DNA from: Nitrososphaerota archaeon
GTDB taxonomy: Archaea; Thermoproteota; Nitrososphaeria; Nitrososphaerales; Nitrosopumilaceae
DNA: 64,000 nt
NCBI GenBank assembly: GCA_028867755.1
Contig: JAGWFT010000001.1
Coordinates: 292,727-356,726, forward strand
Reading direction: 5' to 3'
The position numbers and the translations under genes were made by a program. Positions 9,765 to 43,255 of the stretch are shown piece by piece (the first letter of the stretch is position 1; each line of letters begins with the position of its first letter). The notes under the pieces were generated by a model. That model saw only the letters and a program-made list of their open reading frames with translations, ran no database searches and had not been told where the DNA came from.

Positions 9765-10261
9765 CCAAGTGTTACGTCAAAGTCTTTAGTGATCAGGGTA
9801 AGAGTTGACTCTATTGTTACCTGACCCTTTGCCTCGTACTTGACTGAATCTCCTTTTACTATTGAATCATACACGTCAGCTATACTAGGTGAGTTGACAA
9901 GCTGGAAAGTATCATCAGGAACTGTCATGTTGCTATTTGGGAACAATTCAGGCCTTCCAGCCATTGGGATGTCCTCTACACTATAATGGCCTTGACCAAT
10001 ATCTTTCCCGTTTGCATACAATTCATAATTAATTGTTGAAATGGTAGAAGTGATTGTTGTTGGATTGTATAGAATATAGTCGATCTCAAGATTTGCACGG
10101 TTGTTGATCTTGTCTACACTGAGTAATTTGATAGTTTGAATATTTACAGTTACTTGGTTTAGTTGAGGTTGATATGAATTTGCATATAGATAGAAGAAAA
10201 GCATAAGGCCACCTAAACCAACAAAAGCTGCAATTAACACTGCCTTTCCCTTGCTAACCAA
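9761..10261 (-). CDS. LEA_2 (late embryogenesis abundant-like) membrane-anchored protein
   Basis: N-terminal TM helix; LYNP..ITSTISTINYELYANGKDIGQG pattern. Confidence 0.7.
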   Translation of the reverse strand: MVSKGKAVLIAAFVGLGGLMLFFYLYANSYQPQLNQVTVNIQTIKLLSVDKINNRANLEIDYILYNPTTITSTISTINYELYANGKDIGQGHYSVEDIPMAGRPELFPNSNMTVPDDTFQLVNSPSIADVYDSIVKGDSVKYEAKGQVTIESTLTLITKDFDVTLG

Positions 10262-34273: not shown

Positions 34274-34696
34274 CTATGAACTCTTTTCACAATTGGTTAC
34301 TCCAATTGCTCCATGAACTCCCATGATGTAATTTACAATAGGAATAGGTTTGATAAATTGAATTGTCTTTTTTGGAAAATTATCTACTGCGATATCAAAT
34401 TTAATATCTCTCAAGGTCTCAGGTACTCCAATTAAAACATCATTCTGTGTTAAAACCTTTGATGAGTTATTTGTTATGTTAGAATCTGATCTTCTTGATC
34501 TAATCTCGCTTACAAGATAAGCGCAATAAGCCAGTAAAGCCTCATGAACATTTAGTCTGAGATTTCTAGATAGCTTATTCTTTATCATTTCTATTACATT
34601 TAAAAAAATTGGTTCATCTTGATCTGAGAATTCAAAAAACTTGGTAAAAGGAGTAACGTCTGGCTCTCCTTTTACCAATACTTGGATACTGATCAA
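34274..34696 (-). CDS. Stand-alone urease gamma-subunit-like protein
   Basis: LRLNVHEAL...EIRS....VLTQNDVLIGVPETL...PIP aligns by eye with UreA at 43626 (LKLNYVEAL...GARD...[15 protein letters not shown]...DPI). Confidence 0.75.
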   Translation of the reverse strand: MISIQVLVKGEPDVTPFTKFFEFSDQDEPIFLNVIEMIKNKLSRNLRLNVHEALLAYCAYLVSEIRSRRSDSNITNNSSKVLTQNDVLIGVPETLRDIKFDIAVDNFPKKTIQFIKPIPIVNYIMGVHGAIGVTNCEKSS

Positions 34697-35811
34697 TTTC
34701 TTTTTGGAATCTTTGCTTTTGGACCGTTGCCAAAGTCATAGGTGTGGTTTTTGCCACGATATTGCCTTGGTCTTACTGGGCTGCCATTTTGTACACCCTT
34801 CTTTGTAAGAGATAGTCCAGCCAATAGTTCTACTATTAGTCGGTTTGCAAGGCCAGAAGTGATTCCACCGTTATAGGAATTACCGTCACTTACGTCGTAG
34901 TTGGGAGCTACTTCCACTAGATCAAATGCAAACTTGTCGGGGTCAAATGAGGTGGAAAGTAATCTCATCAATCTCATTCCTTCCCTAGATGTCAAGCCGT
35001 TGGGTTCTGGTTCTCCAGTTCCTGGAGCATATGCGGGATCAAATGTGTCTATATCCCAGCTAATGTAAACTGCGTCGACATTATCATTTGCTCTGTCTGC
35101 AGCTTCTTTTGCAATTTGGTCTATACCAAGTTCTTCTACATCAAGCATGGTAAACCATTGAAAGTCTTGGTCTGCCATCCATTTGTAGAGATCTGGGCCT
35201 GGCCAGTATCCACGAGGTCCTATCAAGGTGTAATTCTTACCCTTCAAACAACCTAGTTCCATAATTCGTCGTATGTGTGCCCCGTGATCATACTTGAAAC
35301 CACATAGGCCTTGTGGGGCACAATCAGCGTGAGTATCAATGTGAATCATTCCGATATTCTTGTATTTCTTTGCAAAGGCTCTTACATTTGCAAAGGTAAT
35401 GGAATGATCACCGCCAAGCATGACTGGGATGCCGTCTATGTCTAAAACTTCTTTGACCTTATCAGTCATCCTTCTATGGGATTCGACCACATCGCCTGGC
35501 GAAATGTTAACGTCACCATAATCAATTGTTCTAAATACTCCAAAAGGATCAACTCCTGTTTCAATGTTAAAATGCTCGTATGGTGGAGATGGCACTGTAG
35601 AAGCTGCTCTTATAGCTCTGGGTCCATATCTTGCACCTGGTCTAATAGTCGTTCCAAAATCAAAGGGCTCTCCTATTATTGCTACATCTGGTCGTATCTT
35701 TTCTAACTCTGCCTTGCTTCTTAGCCAGGGCAATTTCAAGAACGTAGGAATACCTACAAAAATTGGTTCGTCATTGCCTCTGTATGAATCTCCATAAAAT
35801 TCCATTCCCAT
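34693..35811 (-). CDS. Ureohydrolase (arginase/agmatinase superfamily), substrate uncertain
   Basis: GGDHS, DTHAD, SWDID metal ligands; RPGARYGP; APGTG.PEP.G; DLVEVAP.YD. Confidence 0.92.
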   Translation of the reverse strand: MGMEFYGDSYRGNDEPIFVGIPTFLKLPWLRSKAELEKIRPDVAIIGEPFDFGTTIRPGARYGPRAIRAASTVPSPPYEHFNIETGVDPFGVFRTIDYGDVNISPGDVVESHRRMTDKVKEVLDIDGIPVMLGGDHSITFANVRAFAKKYKNIGMIHIDTHADCAPQGLCGFKYDHGAHIRRIMELGCLKGKNYTLIGPRGYWPGPDLYKWMADQDFQWFTMLDVEELGIDQIAKEAADRANDNVDAVYISWDIDTFDPAYAPGTGEPEPNGLTSREGMRLMRLLSTSFDPDKFAFDLVEVAPNYDVSDGNSYNGGITSGLANRLIVELLAGLSLTKKGVQNGSPVRPRQYRGKNHTYDFGNGPKAKIPKRN

Positions 35812-35878
35812 GTTTATCGCATTAGTAATACGTTAGTACATACTTAAATTTGTCTAAGTAATCTACGTTTTTAATTTA

Positions 35879-35893
35879 GTTCTACCGTCGAAC
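35879..35893. promoter_or_regulatory. GTTCGA-N3-TCGAAC palindrome, copy 1
   Basis: GTTCTA-CCG-TCGAAC (one mismatch), 68 nt upstream of the ureohydrolase start. Confidence 0.55.
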
Positions 35894-36036
35894 TTTTTCC
35901 TGTTTGACTCTTGGATTACAACCATAGCTACGTAATCTACGTGCAATAAACAAGAAACACCACAAGAATCATTTTAACATAATGAAAATTTATATCAAAA
36001 TAAAATTTTAAATATATTAGAATTAATAATAGTTGG

Positions 36037-36177
36037 ATGGCAACTGATTTAACTGAAGTTTATGCAATATTTGCAGCAATTCTTGCTGCCTCGGGATTCT
36101 TCTTGTTCTTGGGAACAATTGGAATAAAAGGAGACAAAAAAGAAGACCAATTGCACAAATCAGAAGAAAATACCTAA
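36037..36177 (+). CDS. Small single-pass membrane protein, 46 aa (below the ORF-track cutoff)
   Basis: My translation: MATDLTEVYAIFAAILAASGFFLFLGTIGIKGDKKEDQLHKSEENT. Confidence 0.55.
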   Translation: MATDLTEVYAIFAAILAASGFFLFLGTIGIKGDKKEDQLHKSEENT

Positions 36178-36228
36178 AATTTTCTTATACATATACTATT
36201 TTAAACTACATCTGCAAATGATAATGAT

Positions 36229-36750
36229 ATGATATTTCACTGGTTCAAAAAAAATCAACCAGAACTTCCGCCTACTATAGAATACAAGAAAGCTTCTTCT
36301 AAAAAAGAAGCCTCTGAAGATCTAGTAAAAATGGGTGAAGATGCAGCAAACAAAGCCAATTACGAACACGCTTTGAGGTATTTTGAGAAAGCCATAGAGA
36401 TGAACTCAAAAAATGATTTTGCCTGGGGAGACCGTGGGCTCATGCTAGATAAGCTAGGCAAAAGAGATGAGGCAATTGAATCATTTTCCAAGGCATTAGC
36501 GATAGATTCATCCAATGCCATAACTTGGCATAACAAAGGATTGATGCTCATAAAATCAAATAAGCTTGAGGAGGCCATAGAATGTTTTGATAAATCCATT
36601 GAATTAAATGGAAAATATGCAAAAGCGTATTATAACAGAGGCCGTGCCCTGGCCCTCTTAGGAAATGAAAAGGAGGGTCAAAAGAGCTTTGATACTGCAA
36701 AAAGGCTAGATCCTCTGCTATATACCAAACTTAAGAAAATGAAATCGTAA
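36229..36750 (+). CDS. TPR-repeat protein
   Basis: Successive 34-aa repeats (AWGDRG..., TWHNKG..., AYYNRG...). Confidence 0.9.
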   Translation: MIFHWFKKNQPELPPTIEYKKASSKKEASEDLVKMGEDAANKANYEHALRYFEKAIEMNSKNDFAWGDRGLMLDKLGKRDEAIESFSKALAIDSSNAITWHNKGLMLIKSNKLEEAIECFDKSIELNGKYAKAYYNRGRALALLGNEKEGQKSFDTAKRLDPLLYTKLKKMKS

Positions 36751-36826
36751 ATTTTTTTGGCAATAATAAGCATGCTCTTCAAACATCAAGAAATTTTTAA
36801 ATAAAAACAAATCTAAAAACGCACAA

Positions 36827-37009
36827 TTGTTTGGAAAAAGCTATGGATGTGGTGCATGTGGTATGCGATTCAAATATCGTGATGAGTTGGTCAAGCATGC
36901 ACAAGACATCCATGACAAAAAGACCACATATTTGTGCATCACATGTGATGAATCTTATGAAAACGAGTCATCTTTTATGTTACACATGGCACGCGAACAT
37001 AGAGTTTGA
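36827..37009 (+). CDS. Tandem C2H2 zinc-finger protein
   Basis: CGAC...F....L..H...IH and CITC...Y.....F..H...EH. Confidence 0.8.
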   Translation: MFGKSYGCGACGMRFKYRDELVKHAQDIHDKKTTYLCITCDESYENESSFMLHMAREHRV

Positions 37010-37103
37010 GCATTTTTTTGTTTTTGAAAGATTGGATTATTTTTGATATCAACACAAAAAATGATTTCACATTAAAAAATTAACCCGTGTTAGAAGCTTC
37101 TCT

Positions 37104-37118
37104 GTTCGACTGTCGAAA
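37104..37118. promoter_or_regulatory. GTTCGA-N3-TCGAAC palindrome, copy 2
   Basis: GTTCGA-CTG-TCGAAA, about 50 nt upstream of the symporter start. Confidence 0.6.
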
Positions 37119-37169
37119 TTTAGTGCAATTCCGACATATTTAATAATATATATTTACTAATCATGGGGG

Positions 37170-38759
37170 ATGGGAGACATTCCAATCGCGTATCCTATAG
37201 TGGTGCTCGCATTTGTAGCAGCAACTGCTGCTATTGGAGTTCTCGCAGTAAAATTCGTTAAAAGAAGTAGCAAGCGCTACATTGTGGCAGGCAAAAGCTT
37301 GCCACTATTTTTTATCGGTACAATGCTAGTGTCTGAAGCTGTTGATGGAAATGCTTCGCTTGGAAACGTTTCAGCTACTTTTGGAGGCGGATTCTGGGCA
37401 GGAGCGACCATACCGCTTGGTTTGGCTATTTGTCTTGTCTTAACTGGGGCCTTTTTTGGAAAAAGATTCAATAGAATGTCCATGATCACACTTGCAGATT
37501 TCTACTATAGGCGATATGGAAACACGACCGAAGTAATGTCAGGAACACTCATGGCAGTAAGTTTCATTGTTCTTGTTGCAGGAAACCTGGGTGCAAGTGG
37601 CTACATTTTGTCTGTGTTACTTGGAATACCTTTGATTTATGCAATGTTGATTTCCACTGCTGTAGTATTACTGTATACTTATTTTGGAGGTTTGTTCTCC
37701 TGTGCTTATACCGACATATTTCACATTTATCTTGCAATAATAGGATTTTGGGCCGGCTTTCTCTACTTTATCGGCCCATGGTCGCCAATTCCTGGAGGAC
37801 TAGAGACCATAGTTGCAAATGCACCTGGTAACTTCATGGACATGTCTGGTCTATACGATCTCGGTAATGGCGCGTTACCAAATTGGGCAACTCTAATATC
37901 GCTAGGGGTTGGGGACCTTGTCGCATTAGATTTCATGGAAAGAGTATTTGCAGCAGATGGTGGAAGGACTGCTCAAAAGAGTTGCTATTTTGGAGCAGGC
38001 TTGACGTTGTTATTCATAATCCCTACTACAATGGTAGGAATAATTGGAATGACTTTGGAGCCAAGCCTTACTGATTCCTACACACTCTTTCCAATTGTAG
38101 CAATAAAACATGCACCTATGGTTATAGGCATCTTGATGCTTGTAAGTACAATAAGTTGCGGCATGTCAACTGCAAACGGAGGTACATTAGCTATTGCTAG
38201 TGTACTATCAAGAAACTTTTTGCAACGCAATATCTTAAGGCTAATGAAGAAACAAAAATACAATGATAGGCAGTTGTTACTTGCCACAAGGCTTCTTGTA
38301 ATTCCTATGTTCTTTACCGCTTTTGCCCTAGGCGATCTGATTCCAAGACCTGGCTATTACCTCATACTTGCATTTGATATTGTGTTAGCAGGATGTCTAG
38401 TACCACTAGTTTTTGGAACGTATTGGAAGAAATCTACAGCTTCTGGTGCAGTAGCATGTATCGCAATAGGCACTGGACTGAGAATATTCCTATTCTTCCT
38501 CATCACAATCGCACCAGCTGGTAGCCCCTATCTAGCCTATTCGGGACTTGACACCATTATTCCACCATTGATATCGTTACCAATATTCATACTCGTAAGT
38601 CTGGCAACACAAAAGAAGACACCGCCACGACACGATGTAGTGTATCTCATTCCAAGCGACATGGATGTAGTTACTGGTAGTGATGTGAAAGACTGGGTCA
38701 ATCCAATAGACATGAGAATAGTTGACAGCAAGGGCGGCGCTAAGAGAGATCCGGTATAG
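37170..38759 (+). CDS. Sodium:solute symporter (SSS family)
   Basis: YIVAGKSL, TLADFYYRRYG, YTYFGG..S..YTD, FGTYWKK....GA; about 13 TM helices. Confidence 0.92.
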   Translation: MGDIPIAYPIVVLAFVAATAAIGVLAVKFVKRSSKRYIVAGKSLPLFFIGTMLVSEAVDGNASLGNVSATFGGGFWAGATIPLGLAICLVLTGAFFGKRFNRMSMITLADFYYRRYGNTTEVMSGTLMAVSFIVLVAGNLGASGYILSVLLGIPLIYAMLISTAVVLLYTYFGGLFSCAYTDIFHIYLAIIGFWAGFLYFIGPWSPIPGGLETIVANAPGNFMDMSGLYDLGNGALPNWATLISLGVGDLVALDFMERVFAADGGRTAQKSCYFGAGLTLLFIIPTTMVGIIGMTLEPSLTDSYTLFPIVAIKHAPMVIGILMLVSTISCGMSTANGGTLAIASVLSRNFLQRNILRLMKKQKYNDRQLLLATRLLVIPMFFTAFALGDLIPRPGYYLILAFDIVLAGCLVPLVFGTYWKKSTASGAVACIAIGTGLRIFLFFLITIAPAGSPYLAYSGLDTIIPPLISLPIFILVSLATQKKTPPRHDVVYLIPSDMDVVTGSDVKDWVNPIDMRIVDSKGGAKRDPV

Positions 38760-38802
38760 GGTGTTTGGAAAAATGAAACAAAGGAGGCTAGTAAAGTAAA
38801 AC

Positions 38803-39270
38803 ATGTCAGAAAAAAACAATGTTAAAGTAAACAAAATACTTTTGGCAGTTGACAAATCAGGCTACAAAGACAAGGCAACAGGATATGCTATTACATTGGC
38901 AAAATCTTTGGGCGCTGAAGTTATAGCAATTCATGTAATTGGCAGTTCATCATTGGGTGCAACCAGAGATGTCTTGGGCTATTACAGAGGCGGCAAACTG
39001 AAGGGGTATCAAGATGCGTTAAAGAAAGATGCTGAAAAATTTCTTGATAAAGTAGTGGACGTAGGAGAAAAAGAAGGTGTGACGATAAAGTCAGATGTCA
39101 TAGTAGGATCTCCTGTCAAAAAGGCGATAATAGACTATGCCAAAAAACAAAAAGTAGATCTGATCGTGATTGGATCAAGAGGTATGACCGGCATGGAAAA
39201 ATTTGTTCTGGGAGGAGTAGCTCATGCTGTTGTATCATATGCACATTGCCCTGTACTGGCTGTAAGATAA
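38803..39270 (+). CDS. Universal stress protein
   Basis: ILLAVD.S, DLIVIGSRG......LGGVA..V...AHCPVL.VR. Confidence 0.93.
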   Translation: MSEKNNVKVNKILLAVDKSGYKDKATGYAITLAKSLGAEVIAIHVIGSSSLGATRDVLGYYRGGKLKGYQDALKKDAEKFLDKVVDVGEKEGVTIKSDVIVGSPVKKAIIDYAKKQKVDLIVIGSRGMTGMEKFVLGGVAHAVVSYAHCPVLAVR

Positions 39271-39285
39271 CCTGTTGAATGATAA

Positions 39286-39302
39286 AGTTCGATTGTCGAA
39301 CT
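39286..39302. promoter_or_regulatory. GTTCGA-N3-TCGAAC palindrome, copy 3 (perfect)
   Basis: AGTTCGA-TTG-TCGAACT, overlapping the stop codon of the ParB-like gene. Confidence 0.65.
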
Positions 39303-40050
39303 AATTGAGATGCTTTATCAGGAGATTTTTGACAAAGTCTGTAACTTCTAATCCATTCTGAGATGCTTTTACGTTTAATTGATCCCACATTTTTTTGTCG
39401 AATTTCTTCTTTGGGTTGAAAACAAGACGTACAGTCAAGAGGCCTTTGGGCGCTCCGCGTTTAACCCCAGTTTTTATCATTACTTCTTGGAGTTTTCCAT
39501 CAGATACTGCATTTACTAGCTTTTCTTGAATTGCTTTTGGTTTTCTTGCTATCTGTATTGCCTCATATAGCGTAATTTCCTCACTCTCTATTGCTTGCTG
39601 CAAAGGCTCTGCCAGTGTCAAGATACTCAGCCATTCGCTAACCGTACTCTTTGAGAGTCCATATCTCCTTGATACACCTGTAATACCTGATTCAGTAGAG
39701 TCAACTAACTTTCTTACCATTCTTGCTTTTTCAAGCGGGGGAAGATCCTTCCTTATCAGGTTCTCAAATAATGATGCAGCTTCTGCTTCTGCACCTTCAA
39801 GCTCGGTTACTACTGCAGGTATCTCCCTAGTTCCCTTTGCACTCAGTGAAAGAAATCGTCTACGACCAATCAGTAGTTTGTATCTCTTACTTGCACTATC
39901 AAATCTGACAACTACTGGTTGTAGCAGCTCAAATTTTGACAAATGATCTTTGATAAGTCTGTCTCTGGTATCTTCACCAAAGGGATGATCTTTTCTGACA
40001 TTTTCATCTGCAATATCTATGAGTTTAAGCGGTATGTTCTTGATCTTCAC
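39301..40050 (-). CDS. ParB/Spo0J-like protein (CTPase domain, HTH, C-terminal dimerisation-like domain); no ParA nearby
   Basis: NVR, LLQPVVVR, LLIGRRRF (GxRR), IPAVV, SLFENLIRKDL, HTH GITGVSRRYGLSKSTVSEWL. Confidence 0.85.
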   Translation of the reverse strand: MKIKNIPLKLIDIADENVRKDHPFGEDTRDRLIKDHLSKFELLQPVVVRFDSASKRYKLLIGRRRFLSLSAKGTREIPAVVTELEGAEAEAASLFENLIRKDLPPLEKARMVRKLVDSTESGITGVSRRYGLSKSTVSEWLSILTLAEPLQQAIESEEITLYEAIQIARKPKAIQEKLVNAVSDGKLQEVMIKTGVKRGAPKGLLTVRLVFNPKKKFDKKMWDQLNVKASQNGLEVTDFVKNLLIKHLN

Positions 40051-40226
40051 AAATATTTCTTAATTAGTAAATGTATTTATGAATTTCTTTTCTTTTGTTC
40101 TAAATATTTTTTTGTTCAGGCACGATGCAATATTTACAACAAGTTTCAAGTAAAATGTAGATTACGTATCATTTTTCGGCTGTGAATCAGTAGTTTACAT
40201 TTTTTACCCCAATCTTTAAATCATTT

Positions 40227-40541
40227 TTGAAGGATCTATCTAAAACTATGGAGAGAGCGAGTATCAGGTTTGACACGAAAACTGAAGAATTTCTGAGCAA
40301 AGCGTCTGTCCTTAGTTATTACATCGCAACATACAATGCCGTAAACGGCGAATTAGGACTTGATAATGAGCCTGTCACAGTAGATGAAATATTTGATTTC
40401 ATAAATGATCTAAAACATGAGGGAGGCGCAACAAACATCCAAAATGTAACAAAAGCAGATATCTCATTAACTTTCAGAATACTGCTAAAAGCAGGGCTAG
40501 GAAGGCAAAATCCTCTCGACCTTGCTTCTCTATCAAATTAG
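40227..40541 (+). CDS. Hypothetical protein (possible winged helix)
   Basis: Clean ORF of plausible composition; ATG alternative at 40248. Confidence 0.55.
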   Translation: MKDLSKTMERASIRFDTKTEEFLSKASVLSYYIATYNAVNGELGLDNEPVTVDEIFDFINDLKHEGGATNIQNVTKADISLTFRILLKAGLGRQNPLDLASLSN

Positions 40542-40585
40542 ATAACTGACCTTACATGTTCCAGTTATGGAAAAACCGATAATCG

Positions 40586-41107
40586 CTATAATGTAAGCAT
40601 TTTTTTTGCAGAGTTGATTCTTTCGAGCAAATCTTTAAGGAAGACATCAGCAAAGTGCTCGAATGTTTTTACACCGTGCTTTGTTTCATATTCTTTTTTT
40701 CTTTGGTCATATTCTGACTTGAGCCAGGTAAAGTCTGCTTCTTTTAGATTAATAATATTGTCTCTGGAGACTGCTTTTGATTCAAACATGTTAAGCATGA
40801 AAATACTTGCAAACTTGGTGAAATTGTTTGCTCTGTATTTCTTTTCATATTTTTCCTTCAATATTTTGTAGTTCTCTTCAAACCATTCTTTAACATCGGA
40901 TCTAACTGTTAAGGAAGTGTATCTTCCAGAGAAATCGATTTTAATGTTATGCATTCCTACCGCATAATATTCTCGCTTTATTTCATTCATCATAATTATC
41001 AAAGCGCTAGGAAGAAACATTCCTGGATAATACTCGTCAGTTGCATTTTGCAGTTTAGATATGATGGCAGGCTTTAGCCCTATGGTTGCATACCCTTGAC
41101 TAGGCAT
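40586..41107 (-). CDS. Putative tandem ribbon-helix-helix-like DNA-binding protein
   Basis: Internal repeats YATIGLK.., YTSLTVRSDVKEWF..F.KFA.IF, IINLKEADFTWL..F.HFA.VF. Confidence 0.55.
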   Translation of the reverse strand: MPSQGYATIGLKPAIISKLQNATDEYYPGMFLPSALIIMMNEIKREYYAVGMHNIKIDFSGRYTSLTVRSDVKEWFEENYKILKEKYEKKYRANNFTKFASIFMLNMFESKAVSRDNIINLKEADFTWLKSEYDQRKKEYETKHGVKTFEHFADVFLKDLLERINSAKKMLTL

Positions 41108-41234
41108 GAAAACCGATCGGTAGGTTACGTTAAAAATCTTTAATTAGTATTTAAATAAAATCTGCCTTTTTGGTTTTTGTATATAGAAAATTAAATGACT
41201 AAAAAATAATTAAAAATATTATTTTACAATGGGT

Positions 41235-41489
41235 CTACAAAGGAACCATTGTATCAATCAGTCTTGAATTGGTTATGTTACCGTCTTTCATTTGAATAAC
41301 CAAATCGACTGTATGTTTCAACTTGTTCAACAGAAAAGTCACTTGTACATCCCAAGAGTCTTGAGGACCTTTTTCTGGTAATGGAAAGAGCTCTCTTATC
41401 TTGAAATCCTGGATTTCAGTGCCATAGAGTGCCTCTGTTGCTTTCTTTGAAGCTTTTTCAACGTCGTCACGTGTCTTTACTGGTGACAT
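41235..41489 (-). CDS. Hypothetical protein
   Basis: 84-aa ORF with ATG and upstream TATA-like element. Confidence 0.65.
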   Translation of the reverse strand: MSPVKTRDDVEKASKKATEALYGTEIQDFKIRELFPLPEKGPQDSWDVQVTFLLNKLKHTVDLVIQMKDGNITNSRLIDTMVPL

Positions 41490-41528
41490 ATTTTATTTTA
41501 TACTTAGTAAATATAAAAATATATTGAT

Positions 41529-41543
41529 TTTCGATTGTCGAAC
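41529..41543. promoter_or_regulatory. GTTCGA-N3-TCGAAC palindrome, copy 4
   Basis: TTTCGA-TTG-TCGAAC; the 16-mer TTCGATTGTCGAACTA is identical to 39288-39303. Confidence 0.6.
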
Positions 41544-43255
41544 TAGAACAGGTGGTATAGTCTGGTCATCGATAGTTTTTTTGACGGTTCAGTTGTAGCC
41601 AACTTTCCATCCACCAAAACTTTGTAGGTTTCAGGGTCGATCTCTATCTTAGGCAACAAATTGTTGTAAAACATATTCTTCTTGCTTATCTTTCGGCAAT
41701 TTTTGACCGGAAGTAATTTCTTTTTTAAACCTAATTTTCTTGATAAGCCATTTTGTATTGCTAGTTTTGAAGTAAAAGTTACCGAGGTAGAATATACTGC
41801 CTTTCCAAATGCGCCAAACATGGGACGATAATATACTGGCTCTGGGGTTGGAATTGATGCATTTGGGTCTCCCATAAGAGAATAGGCAACAAATCCTCCT
41901 TTAATTATGAGTCTGGGCTTTACACCAAAGAATTCAGGTGACCACATCACAATGTCAGCTAATTTACCTACTTCTAAGGAACCAACGTAGCTAGAAATTC
42001 CATGAGTTATTGCTGGGTTGATGGTAAGTTTTGCAAGATATCTTTTGACTCGAATATTGTCATTATCTCCTGTTTCTTCCCCTAGACGACCAGACATCTT
42101 TTTCATTTTGTCAGCAGTTTGCCATGCTCTGATGCCTACCTCTCCAACTCTTCCCATTGCCTGACTATCAGAAGAATACATGCTTAAAGCTCCAATATCA
42201 TGCAGAACATCTTCAGCAGCAATTGTTTCGCCTCTGATCCTAGACTCTGCAAATGCTATGTCCTCTCTTACAGACGGATTTAGGTGATGGCAAACCATCA
42301 TCATGTCAAGATGTTCCTCTAACGTGTTAACCGTAAATGGTCTTGTTGGATTTGTAGAAGAGGGAAGAATATTTTTCTCACCAGCTATTTTCATAATGTC
42401 TGGTGCATGTCCACCGCCGGCTCCTTCTGTGTGATATGTGTGAATTGTTCTTCCGCCTATTGCTCTGATTGTATCGTCAACAAAACCACATTCATTTAAT
42501 GTGTCTGTGTGGATAGCCACTTGAGTATCTGTTTTGTCTGCAACACGCAGAGCAGCATCAATAGTTGCAGGAGTAGAACCCCAATCTTCATGTAATTTCA
42601 AACCGCAAGCTCCCGCAGCAATCTGCTCCATTAGTGCAGGTTCTCTTGAGTCATTTCCTTTTCCAAGTAGCCCAAAATTTAGAGGAAACTCGTCAAGAGA
42701 CTCAAGCATTCTATGGATATTCCATGGGCCAGGTGTACATGTTGTTGCTTTAGTGCCATCAGCAGGCCCCGTACCGCCGCCAATCATAGTTGTGGTGCCA
42801 CTACAGATTGCATCTATTGCCTGTTGAGGTGCAATGAAATGAATGTGTGTATCAATTATTCCAGGAGTGCATATTGTATGCTCTCCTGCAATTACTTCTG
42901 TGTTTGCAGATATTACCATGTCTACATTGTCCATGATATTTGGATTGCCTGCTTTTCCGATACCAGCTATTTTGCCATCTTTGATGCCAATGTCCGCCTT
43001 GATGATACCAAGGACAGGATCCATGATAACGGCATTTGTTATTACTAGGTCAAGTGAATTTCTGCTAATGACACCACTTGCCTGACCCATCCCATCCCTT
43101 GCACTCTTACCTCCGCCAAAAACTATCTCATCCCCATAGGTCTGAAAGTCCTTCTCGATCTCAATTATGAGATCCGTATCGGCAAGTCTAATTTTGTCGC
43201 CCTTGGTAGGACCGTAAAGGTCAACGTATTGCTTTCTGGGAATTATTAGTGTCAT
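41543..43255 (-). CDS. ureC: Urease alpha (large catalytic) subunit
   Basis: [56 protein letters not shown]. Confidence 0.99.

Follow-up and report, generated by a model that had tools for sequence, protein, structure and literature searches.

An orphan ParB-family protein (ParB1) encoded near the urease genes of an ammonia-oxidising archaeon (AOA), Ca. Nitrosotalea, is probably a sequence-specific DNA-binding regulator, with the palindrome GTTCGAC-N-GTCGAAC as its cognate site. The parB1 gene lies in a 64,000-nt stretch of DNA (the window; positions 292,727 to 356,726 of contig JAGWFT010000001.1, assembly GCA_028867755.1), in which four copies of the palindrome fall within 5.7 kb. Sequence-specific gene regulation by ParB1, and not DNA segregation, is well supported by the placement and conservation of these sites, and we infer binding, transcriptional effect and nucleotide dependence of the protein from comparisons of the locus across AOA.

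The palindrome and its four sites

Read together with their orthologs, the window copies define a 15-bp palindrome with 7-bp arms, GTTCGAC-N-GTCGAAC, from which each of them departs by one or two mismatches. The original prediction had described GTTCGA-N3-TCGAAC at four gene boundaries; all four positions were right, but the strict pattern GTTCGANNNTCGAAC (GTTCGA-N3-TCGAAC) has its sole match at 39287. The core TTCGA-N3-TCGAA, with 10 specified bases, is exact at 37105, 39288 and 41530 (0.06 expected), and the copy at 35880 has one mismatch to it. A scan of the whole source assembly (1.64 Mb in 112 contigs) at up to two mismatches gives five matches, namely the four window sites and one on C48, a 657-bp strain-variant contig that repeats the junction between the ureC end and orf84 including site C; apart from the C48 copy there are no further sites outside the 5.7-kb cluster, and the earlier statement that the window holds no other copy agrees with this. 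In genomes simulated with a third-order Markov model, 0 matches are expected per genome at one mismatch or fewer and 1.6 at two mismatches, and the three-mismatch class of the real genome is at chance level, with 20 observed and 20.6 in the background. Four sites within 5.7 kb therefore far exceed chance, and the motif is not frequent genome-wide. The assembly contigs C48 and C49 are short variant copies of the ureC-end/orf84/RHH3 junction and of the 5' end of ureC (83% identity), and indicate a second, related population in the sample.

The sites are referred to as D, A, B and C in the order of their positions (Table 1). Three of them were expected to lie 40–70 nt upstream of gene starts, and the distances are 67 nt for the arginase-family gene (arg), 51 nt for the SSS-family symporter gene and 39 nt for orf84. 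With the perfect GTTCGAC arm read first, sites A, C and D each point at the gene downstream (SSS, orf84 and arg respectively), and the degenerate arm is the promoter-proximal one. Site B has two perfect outer arms and is located, as had been noted, between the stop codons of the convergent parB1 and universal stress protein (USP) genes. In an alignment of ten Nitrosotalea loci all four palindromes stand out as conserved islands amid diverged flanks; downstream of sites A, C and D there are AT-rich promoter blocks that are also conserved, and the spacer around site B cannot be aligned apart from the site itself and contains no promoter-like block. The degenerate TAGAAC arm of site D is kept in relatives, and site C is also present in Nitrososphaera loci L083 and L112.

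We extended the comparison to 129 distinct loci encoding ParB1, drawn from Nitrosotalea, Nitrososphaera and Nitrosocosmicus and ranging in G+C content from 30 to 57%, and counted palindromes within 300 nt upstream of start codons. The palindrome precedes SSS in 66 of 78 loci, at a median of 54 nt from the ATG, and arg in 48 of 77 at about 64–71 nt (median 68); it is found upstream of orf84 in 18/62 loci (38–40 nt) and of parB1 in 11/118 (57–63 nt). Nitrososphaera viennensis EN76 (CP007536.1, at ~1.265 Mb) also encodes ParB1, and its single palindrome is 50 nt upstream of SSS. Each genome has one to four palindromes, all inside one gene island. In GC-rich Nitrososphaera (L080, L088–L090, L095, L107) a symmetric variant, GTTCGGC-N-GCCGAAC, lies 68 nt upstream of arg; these loci keep the canonical palindrome at SSS, and in the variant the change affects the equivalent position of each arm. 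The fixed distances to start codons across the 129 loci are those anticipated if, as predicted, the palindrome were to serve in gene control. Five unpublished genomes (G017, G010, G026, G032 and G292) are redundant data points on which no conclusion depends; G017 is one of the Nitrosotalea loci and G292 one of the ParB1-less genomes described below.

The module conserved around ParB1 consists of orf104, RHH3 (a ribbon-helix-helix (RHH)-like protein), SSS, the arginase-family and UreA-like genes, USP, a TPR protein and orf84, and is often located beside ureABC. The arginase-family protein is 88–97% identical between Nitrosotalea and Nitrososphaeraceae, compared with 65–73% for ParB1, ~84% for UreC and ~45–50% for the TPR protein (L047–L113), which points to very strong constraint on this gene or to its recent transfer. 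In the complete Nitrosotalea genome G012 (L032:11930–12160, L045), what remains of ureC in front of site C corresponds to residues 488–570 only; the intact ureABC is ~120 kb away, where it adjoins a gene of a second ParB clade and has a palindrome-like sequence, TTCGATTCTCGAA, ~200 nt upstream of ureA.

We also considered two readings of the palindrome that do not involve a DNA-binding regulator, and rejected both. An RNA hairpin or terminator is excluded by its geometry, as 7-bp arms separated by 1 nt cannot fold into a stem and loop; moreover, there is no conserved T-tract 3' of the sites, and sites A and D are upstream of promoters. Sites B and C form a 16-bp direct repeat that could be read as a recombination or cassette boundary, but the orf84 and RHH3 genes that it brackets are core genes of islands lacking ParB1, and the motif is also present at sites A and D, which bracket nothing.

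Motif 2 and the candidate binders

The island contains a second conserved cis-element, ACGTAGWTTAC, which we refer to as motif 2. A pair of copies with the sequence ACGTAGATTAC flanks site D; these are the only exact motif 2 copies in the genome, and at the arg promoter they are perfectly conserved in the ten Nitrosotalea loci. Motif 2 is found upstream of arg in 64/77 loci and in the region between the divergent parB1 and orf104 genes in 55/118. In N. viennensis one copy precedes parB1 by 24 nt and two lie between parB1 and arg, and in locus L205 it lies at 9977, 10760 and 10803.

Three proteins of the island are candidates for binding the palindrome: ParB1, RHH3 and the product of orf104. 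Since co-occurrence inside one island cannot separate candidate binders, we turned to 301 Nitrososphaerales genomes, sampled evenly from the order, and asked where the candidates occur apart from one another. ParB1 is present in 23 of these, and 20 of the 23 have the palindrome with at most one mismatch; among the ParB1-negative Nitrosopumilaceae and Nitrososphaeraceae, the families that hold the island, it is found in one of 125. Nineteen further genomes encode full-length RHH3 orthologs (44–57% identity) and no ParB1, and none of the 19 contains the palindrome. We inspected eight such loci, and in all of them arg, orf84, RHH3, TPR and SSS are present while ParB1, orf104 and the palindrome are absent; five of the eight retain motif 2 at arg, ~44 nt upstream.

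The reciprocal case is provided by a genome of a different family, G050, in which a ParB1 ortholog (56% identity) is encoded among ribosomal and RNA-polymerase genes and its ATG is preceded, at a distance of 58 nt, by a perfect palindrome. RHH3, an island-type arg, SSS, ureC and motif 2 were not found in this genome, which is 77% complete, and an orf104 homolog was not detected in its contig; two small open reading frames (ORFs) upstream of the G050 parB1 were considered as counterparts of orf104 or RHH3 and are homologs of neither. A metagenome scan for more divergent ParB1 relatives returned only the same clades of 64–92% identity and no further case of ParB1 alone.

The RHH3-only genomes and G050 thus indicate that the palindrome follows ParB1 and that motif 2 follows the RHH3 island. 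They support assignment of the palindrome to the ParB1 clade and not to the neighbouring RHH-like protein, which the original prediction had named as the alternative owner. The co-occurrence extends over three AOA lineages and is lost where only the RHH-like protein is present, a pattern that would be expected of a ParB clade with a site of its own. Because motif 2 persists at arg in ParB1-less islands, it probably belongs to the RHH-like protein or to another island factor. The AlphaFold2 model of RHH3 is too poor for use, with a predicted local distance difference test (pLDDT) score of 54, and there are no Pfam matches for RHH3, orf84 or orf104 even at an E-value of 10. In tblastn searches orf104 accompanies ParB1 in 92 of ~118 loci, always divergently transcribed, and is never found in ParB1-less islands. 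Language-model look-alikes of its product in a protein atlas include integrase N-terminal SAM-like DNA-binding domains, a weak lead with a low shared-feature count; we regard orf104 as a candidate for a KorA-like partner.

Properties and predicted action of ParB1

The description of ParB1 as a ParB-like protein with GxRR, ENxxR and helix-turn-helix (HTH) elements is borne out by matches to ParB_N (PF02195; E 8.9e-12, 45.3 bits, cut-off 26.3) and HTH_ParB (E 7.4e-11), with GRRR and ENLIR in the expected places, and ParB1 is the only ParB_N match in the genome. HMMER aligns residues 4–188 to Noc, Spo0J and ParB structures, with Q44-P45, G62-R63-R64-R65 and E96-N97-L98-I99-R100 opposite the QPIVVR, GERR and ENLQR motifs of Noc and Spo0J. 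In this alignment ParB1 retains the CTP (cytidine triphosphate) pocket residues of solved ParB and Noc structures. Among 26 orthologs with 56–92% identity, Q44-P45, G62-R64-R65, E96-N97-R100 and the HTH recognition helix are invariant, as are HTH residues K134, S135, T136, S138, E139 and W140. The AlphaFold2 model has a pLDDT of 82, and its top Foldseek matches are CTP- and CDP-bound ParB and Noc, with KorB structures also among the best.

The C-terminus is less readily classified. In the monomer model it is coil followed by two helices at residues 203–248, with a conserved strand-like segment, KGLLTVRLVF, and it has no Pfam match even at an E-value of 10. The last ~50 residues appear compatible with an RHH-like dimerisation module or one resembling the ParB C-terminal domain (CTD), although this is unproven; a predicted homodimer of the C-terminal 62 residues scored 0.33 relative to a mark of 0.42, which counts neither way.

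We propose that a ParB1 dimer binds the palindrome through its ParB-type HTH and would then control the promoters directly downstream, namely those of SSS, of the arginase-family/UreA-like operon, of the orf84–RHH3 operon and, in some genomes, of parB1. The genes under control would constitute an accessory nitrogen-acquisition island beside urease. A second factor, most likely RHH3, may act via motif 2 on the arg and parB1/orf104 promoters, and the two factors could form a small regulatory circuit. If ParB1 does bind in this way, CTP-gated loading and clamping of the KorB/VirB type are somewhat favoured as its mode of action, because the residues of the CTP pocket do not vary among orthologs and site B is conserved at a place with no promoter. 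We put forward with considerably more reserve, as tentative and on the whole rather doubtful, a fuller picture in which ParB1 is the first archaeal CTP-gated regulatory clamp, loads at the palindromes including the promoterless site B, slides along or bridges the 5.7-kb island, possibly latched by orf104 in a KorA-like manner, and switches an organic-nitrogen module according to energy or nitrogen status. That the arginase-family enzyme supplies guanidino nitrogen is an unproven guess; a survey found no guanidine-degradation genes in AOA (PMC11410670).

Several observations weigh against this interpretation of ParB1. The second residue of its GERR box is arginine and not glutamate, and the linker between the HTH and the CTD is ~10 residues, which is short for a DNA-entrapping clamp. 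Both are more easily accommodated if ParB1 is a classical, nucleotide-independent repressor or activator that binds operators and uses its N-terminal domain for oligomerisation only, with no clamp or sliding. The location of three of the four window sites and of the single N. viennensis site as promoter-proximal operators at fixed distances also fits such a protein, but the invariance of the CTP-pocket residues down to 56% identity is hard to explain if the pocket is not used, and site B is under selection in Nitrosotalea where it has no adjacent promoter. We therefore regard a classical operator binder as unlikely. An exchange of partners, in which RHH3 or orf104 binds the palindrome and ParB1 binds motif 2, draws on further observations. 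Motif 2 brackets parB1 in many genomes, most Nitrososphaera parB1 promoters carry motif 2 and not the palindrome, and its positions 24 nt upstream of N. viennensis parB1 and in nearly half of parB1 upstream regions would fit a scheme in which each factor simply controls its own gene; RHH3 is encoded in operons downstream of the palindrome (SSS–RHH3 or orf84–RHH3), and the protein that actually binds the palindrome, alone or jointly, could be that of orf104, which is found with ParB1 in most islands. The dissociations on which our assignment depends are also open to objection, as the ParB1-only case is the single incomplete genome G050, and the RHH3 orthologs of ParB1-less genomes are divergent enough that they could have changed specificity. 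However, an exchange does not account for the 19 RHH3-encoding genomes with no palindrome, for motif 2 at arg in islands that have neither ParB1 nor orf104, or for G050, which has ParB1 and the palindrome and no RHH3, motif 2 or detectable orf104 homolog, and a 15-bp palindrome with parS-like half-sites suits a dimeric ParB HTH. We consider it improbable.

Palindromes of this general kind are also not wholly private to ParB1. The original prediction would have been weakened by copies in genomes lacking ParB, and the counts of one in 125 and none in 19 speak in its favour, but in the ParB1-less Nitrososphaerales family f10 there are similar TTCGA...TCGAA palindromes, in 23-bp tandem arrays. These arrays (L118:2660–2697; L119:4858–4953; L122:5237–5378) consist of a GTTCGACCCTCGAAC-like palindromic box with a 23-bp period, are intergenic and occur in GC-rich genomes; the ORFs beside them have no informative Pfam match. 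We rejected them as instances of the ParB1 element, given the tandem arrangement and the unrelated contexts, and they could be an iteron, origin or centromere-like array. A maintenance function has likewise to be considered for ParB1 itself, which with its sites might be a remnant or active module for centromere function, SMC loading or partition of a mobile island. An association with mobile elements is common among orphan ParBs (PMC12704722), and thaumarchaeal integrative and conjugative elements (ICEs) encode ParB-like proteins (PMC6563490); the island is patchy (23 of 301 genomes), the near-identity of the arginase-family protein across families suggests transfer, and site B lacks a promoter. 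Set against this, the original prediction was correct that no ParA is nearby, the nearest ParA/CbiA-type ATPase match being ~97 kb away, and ParB1 starts directly at ParB_N, with no [LFI]G[KR]G[LFI] motif that would serve as a ParA-interaction peptide. In five complete genomes parB1 and its sites are 14–22% of the chromosome away from the best orc1/cdc6 match (an origin proxy only), the loci examined showed neither integrase nor conjugation genes, and the start-codon distances are fixed, with the lone N. viennensis site in the SSS promoter. A maintenance module thus appears very unlikely, and a role of ParB1 in segregation or origin organisation is itself unlikely because there is no ParA, there are only one to four sites per genome, and these are remote from orc1/cdc6.

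Table 1. Palindrome sites, motif 2 copies and genes of the parB1 locus (window coordinates).
Feature	Coordinates	Strand	Description
Site D	35879–35893	minus	GTTCGACGGTAGAAC; 67 nt upstream of arginase-family ATG
Site A	37104–37118	plus	GTTCGACTGTCGAAA; 51 nt upstream of SSS symporter ATG
Site B	39287–39301	minus	GTTCGACAATCGAAC; first G is the last base of the parB1 TAG stop; no promoter block after it
Site C	41529–41543	minus	GTTCGACAATCGAAA; first G shared with the ureC TAG stop; 39 nt upstream of orf84 ATG
parB1	39301–40050	minus	249-aa orphan ParB: ParB_N, ParB-type HTH and C-terminal strand-helix-helix tail
orf104	40227–40541	plus	small conserved protein, divergent from parB1
RHH3	40586–41107	minus	173 aa, three strand-helix-helix-like repeats; rival candidate DNA binder
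orf84	41235–41489	minus	84 aa, conserved; preceded by site C, with RHH3 following on that strand
SSS-family symporter	37170–38759	plus	most constant target of the palindrome
Arginase-family ureohydrolase (arg)	34693–35811	minus	downstream of site D
Urease-gamma-like (UreA-like) gene	34274–34696	minus	downstream of site D
Motif 2, exact copies (ACGTAGATTAC)	35858–35868, 35932–35942	minus	flank site D
Motif 2, one mismatch	40155–40165	plus	parB1/orf104 divergent promoter region
USP gene	38803–39270	plus	converges on parB1 at site B
ureC (urease alpha)	41543–43255	minus	stop codon overlaps site C

Relation to known ParB systems

To our knowledge, transcription-regulating CTP switches of the ParB fold have so far been known from bacterial plasmids (KorB and VirB). 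ParB1 and its sites offer an orphan ParB clade with a defined predicted site, a small regulon and an ecological context in the use of urea and organic nitrogen by soil nitrifiers, and the presence of the system in the cultivated model N. viennensis EN76 makes the question directly testable. As the original prediction had supposed, our search of the AOA literature turned up no account of ParB1, its palindrome or motif 2. Archaeal orphan ParBs that possess an HTH and a C-terminal domain are listed, with no function assigned, in a 2025 survey of the ParB-CTPase fold (PMC12704722), in which neither AOA nor urease nor a regulon of this kind is mentioned. The ParB-like proteins of thaumarchaeal ICEs are coupled to TFIIB (PMC6563490), a context that differs from that of ParB1. 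Urease and urea transporters of N. viennensis are induced under copper limitation and by 3,4-dimethylpyrazole phosphate (DMPP), with no regulator named (PMC7785015, PMC13674081); the ParB1 system offers candidate regulators for these responses.

A second clade of AOA ParBs, with 287–295 aa, likewise comprises orphan proteins with ParB_N and HTH_ParB, encoded 0.3–7 kb from ureC in several AOA families (for example L045:9494–10381, L046:871–1740 and L205:3710–4573). It differs from ParB1 in its greater length, is 25–35% identical to it and is absent from the genome studied here. N. viennensis has both clades within a single urea island of 20 kb, which also encodes UT, SSF-Usp and a NikR_C protein.

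In sequence and in structure ParB1 matches chromosomal Spo0J/ParB and Noc best (Noc 7ng0, E 2e-17; Spo0J 1vz0; ParB 6t1f, TM 0.57–0.72), with which it has the Q-P, GxRR and ENLxR motifs in common, and its half-site GTTCGAC resembles the bacterial parS half-site GTTTCAC (GTT..AC). Unlike these proteins ParB1 has no ParA, no ParA-binding peptide and no origin-proximal cluster of sites, its sites being at fixed promoter distances, and no membrane-targeting helix of the Noc kind is evident. Judged as a canonical ParABS system, the locus has neither an adjacent ParA nor the N-terminal peptide, and its sites are not clustered at the origin in the manner of parS, with orc1 taken as the proxy.

The regulatory ParBs are closer in arrangement. 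KorB of plasmid RK2, a CTP-dependent clamp and long-range repressor that acts with KorA, shares ParB_N and the HTH with ParB1 and is a fold match (8qa8/8qa9); it too has several short palindromic operators per regulon at or near promoters, and in most islands ParB1 has beside it a small protein of partner size, orf104, with a putative KorA-like role. The two differ in that ParB1 is archaeal and chromosomal, is located in a metabolic island and lacks ParA/IncC, and the 13-bp KorB operator OB contrasts with the 15-bp 7-N-7 site of ParB1; their sequence similarity is weak (E 1.2e-3). The VirB site is itself a 7-N-7 inverted repeat. VirB of Shigella flexneri, a CTP-dependent anti-silencer, is likewise an orphan member of the ParB family that controls transcription from sites upstream of promoters, and its CTP switch has been described (PMC10770331). 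VirB counteracts H-NS on a virulence plasmid, whereas Archaea lack H-NS and ParB1 is predicted to act on transporter and hydrolase genes in an ammonia oxidiser. The ParB1 system would thus represent an archaeal, chromosomal variant of the KorB/VirB kind within a metabolic island, of which the clamp is the part that we regard as a reasonable extrapolation from the conserved residues.

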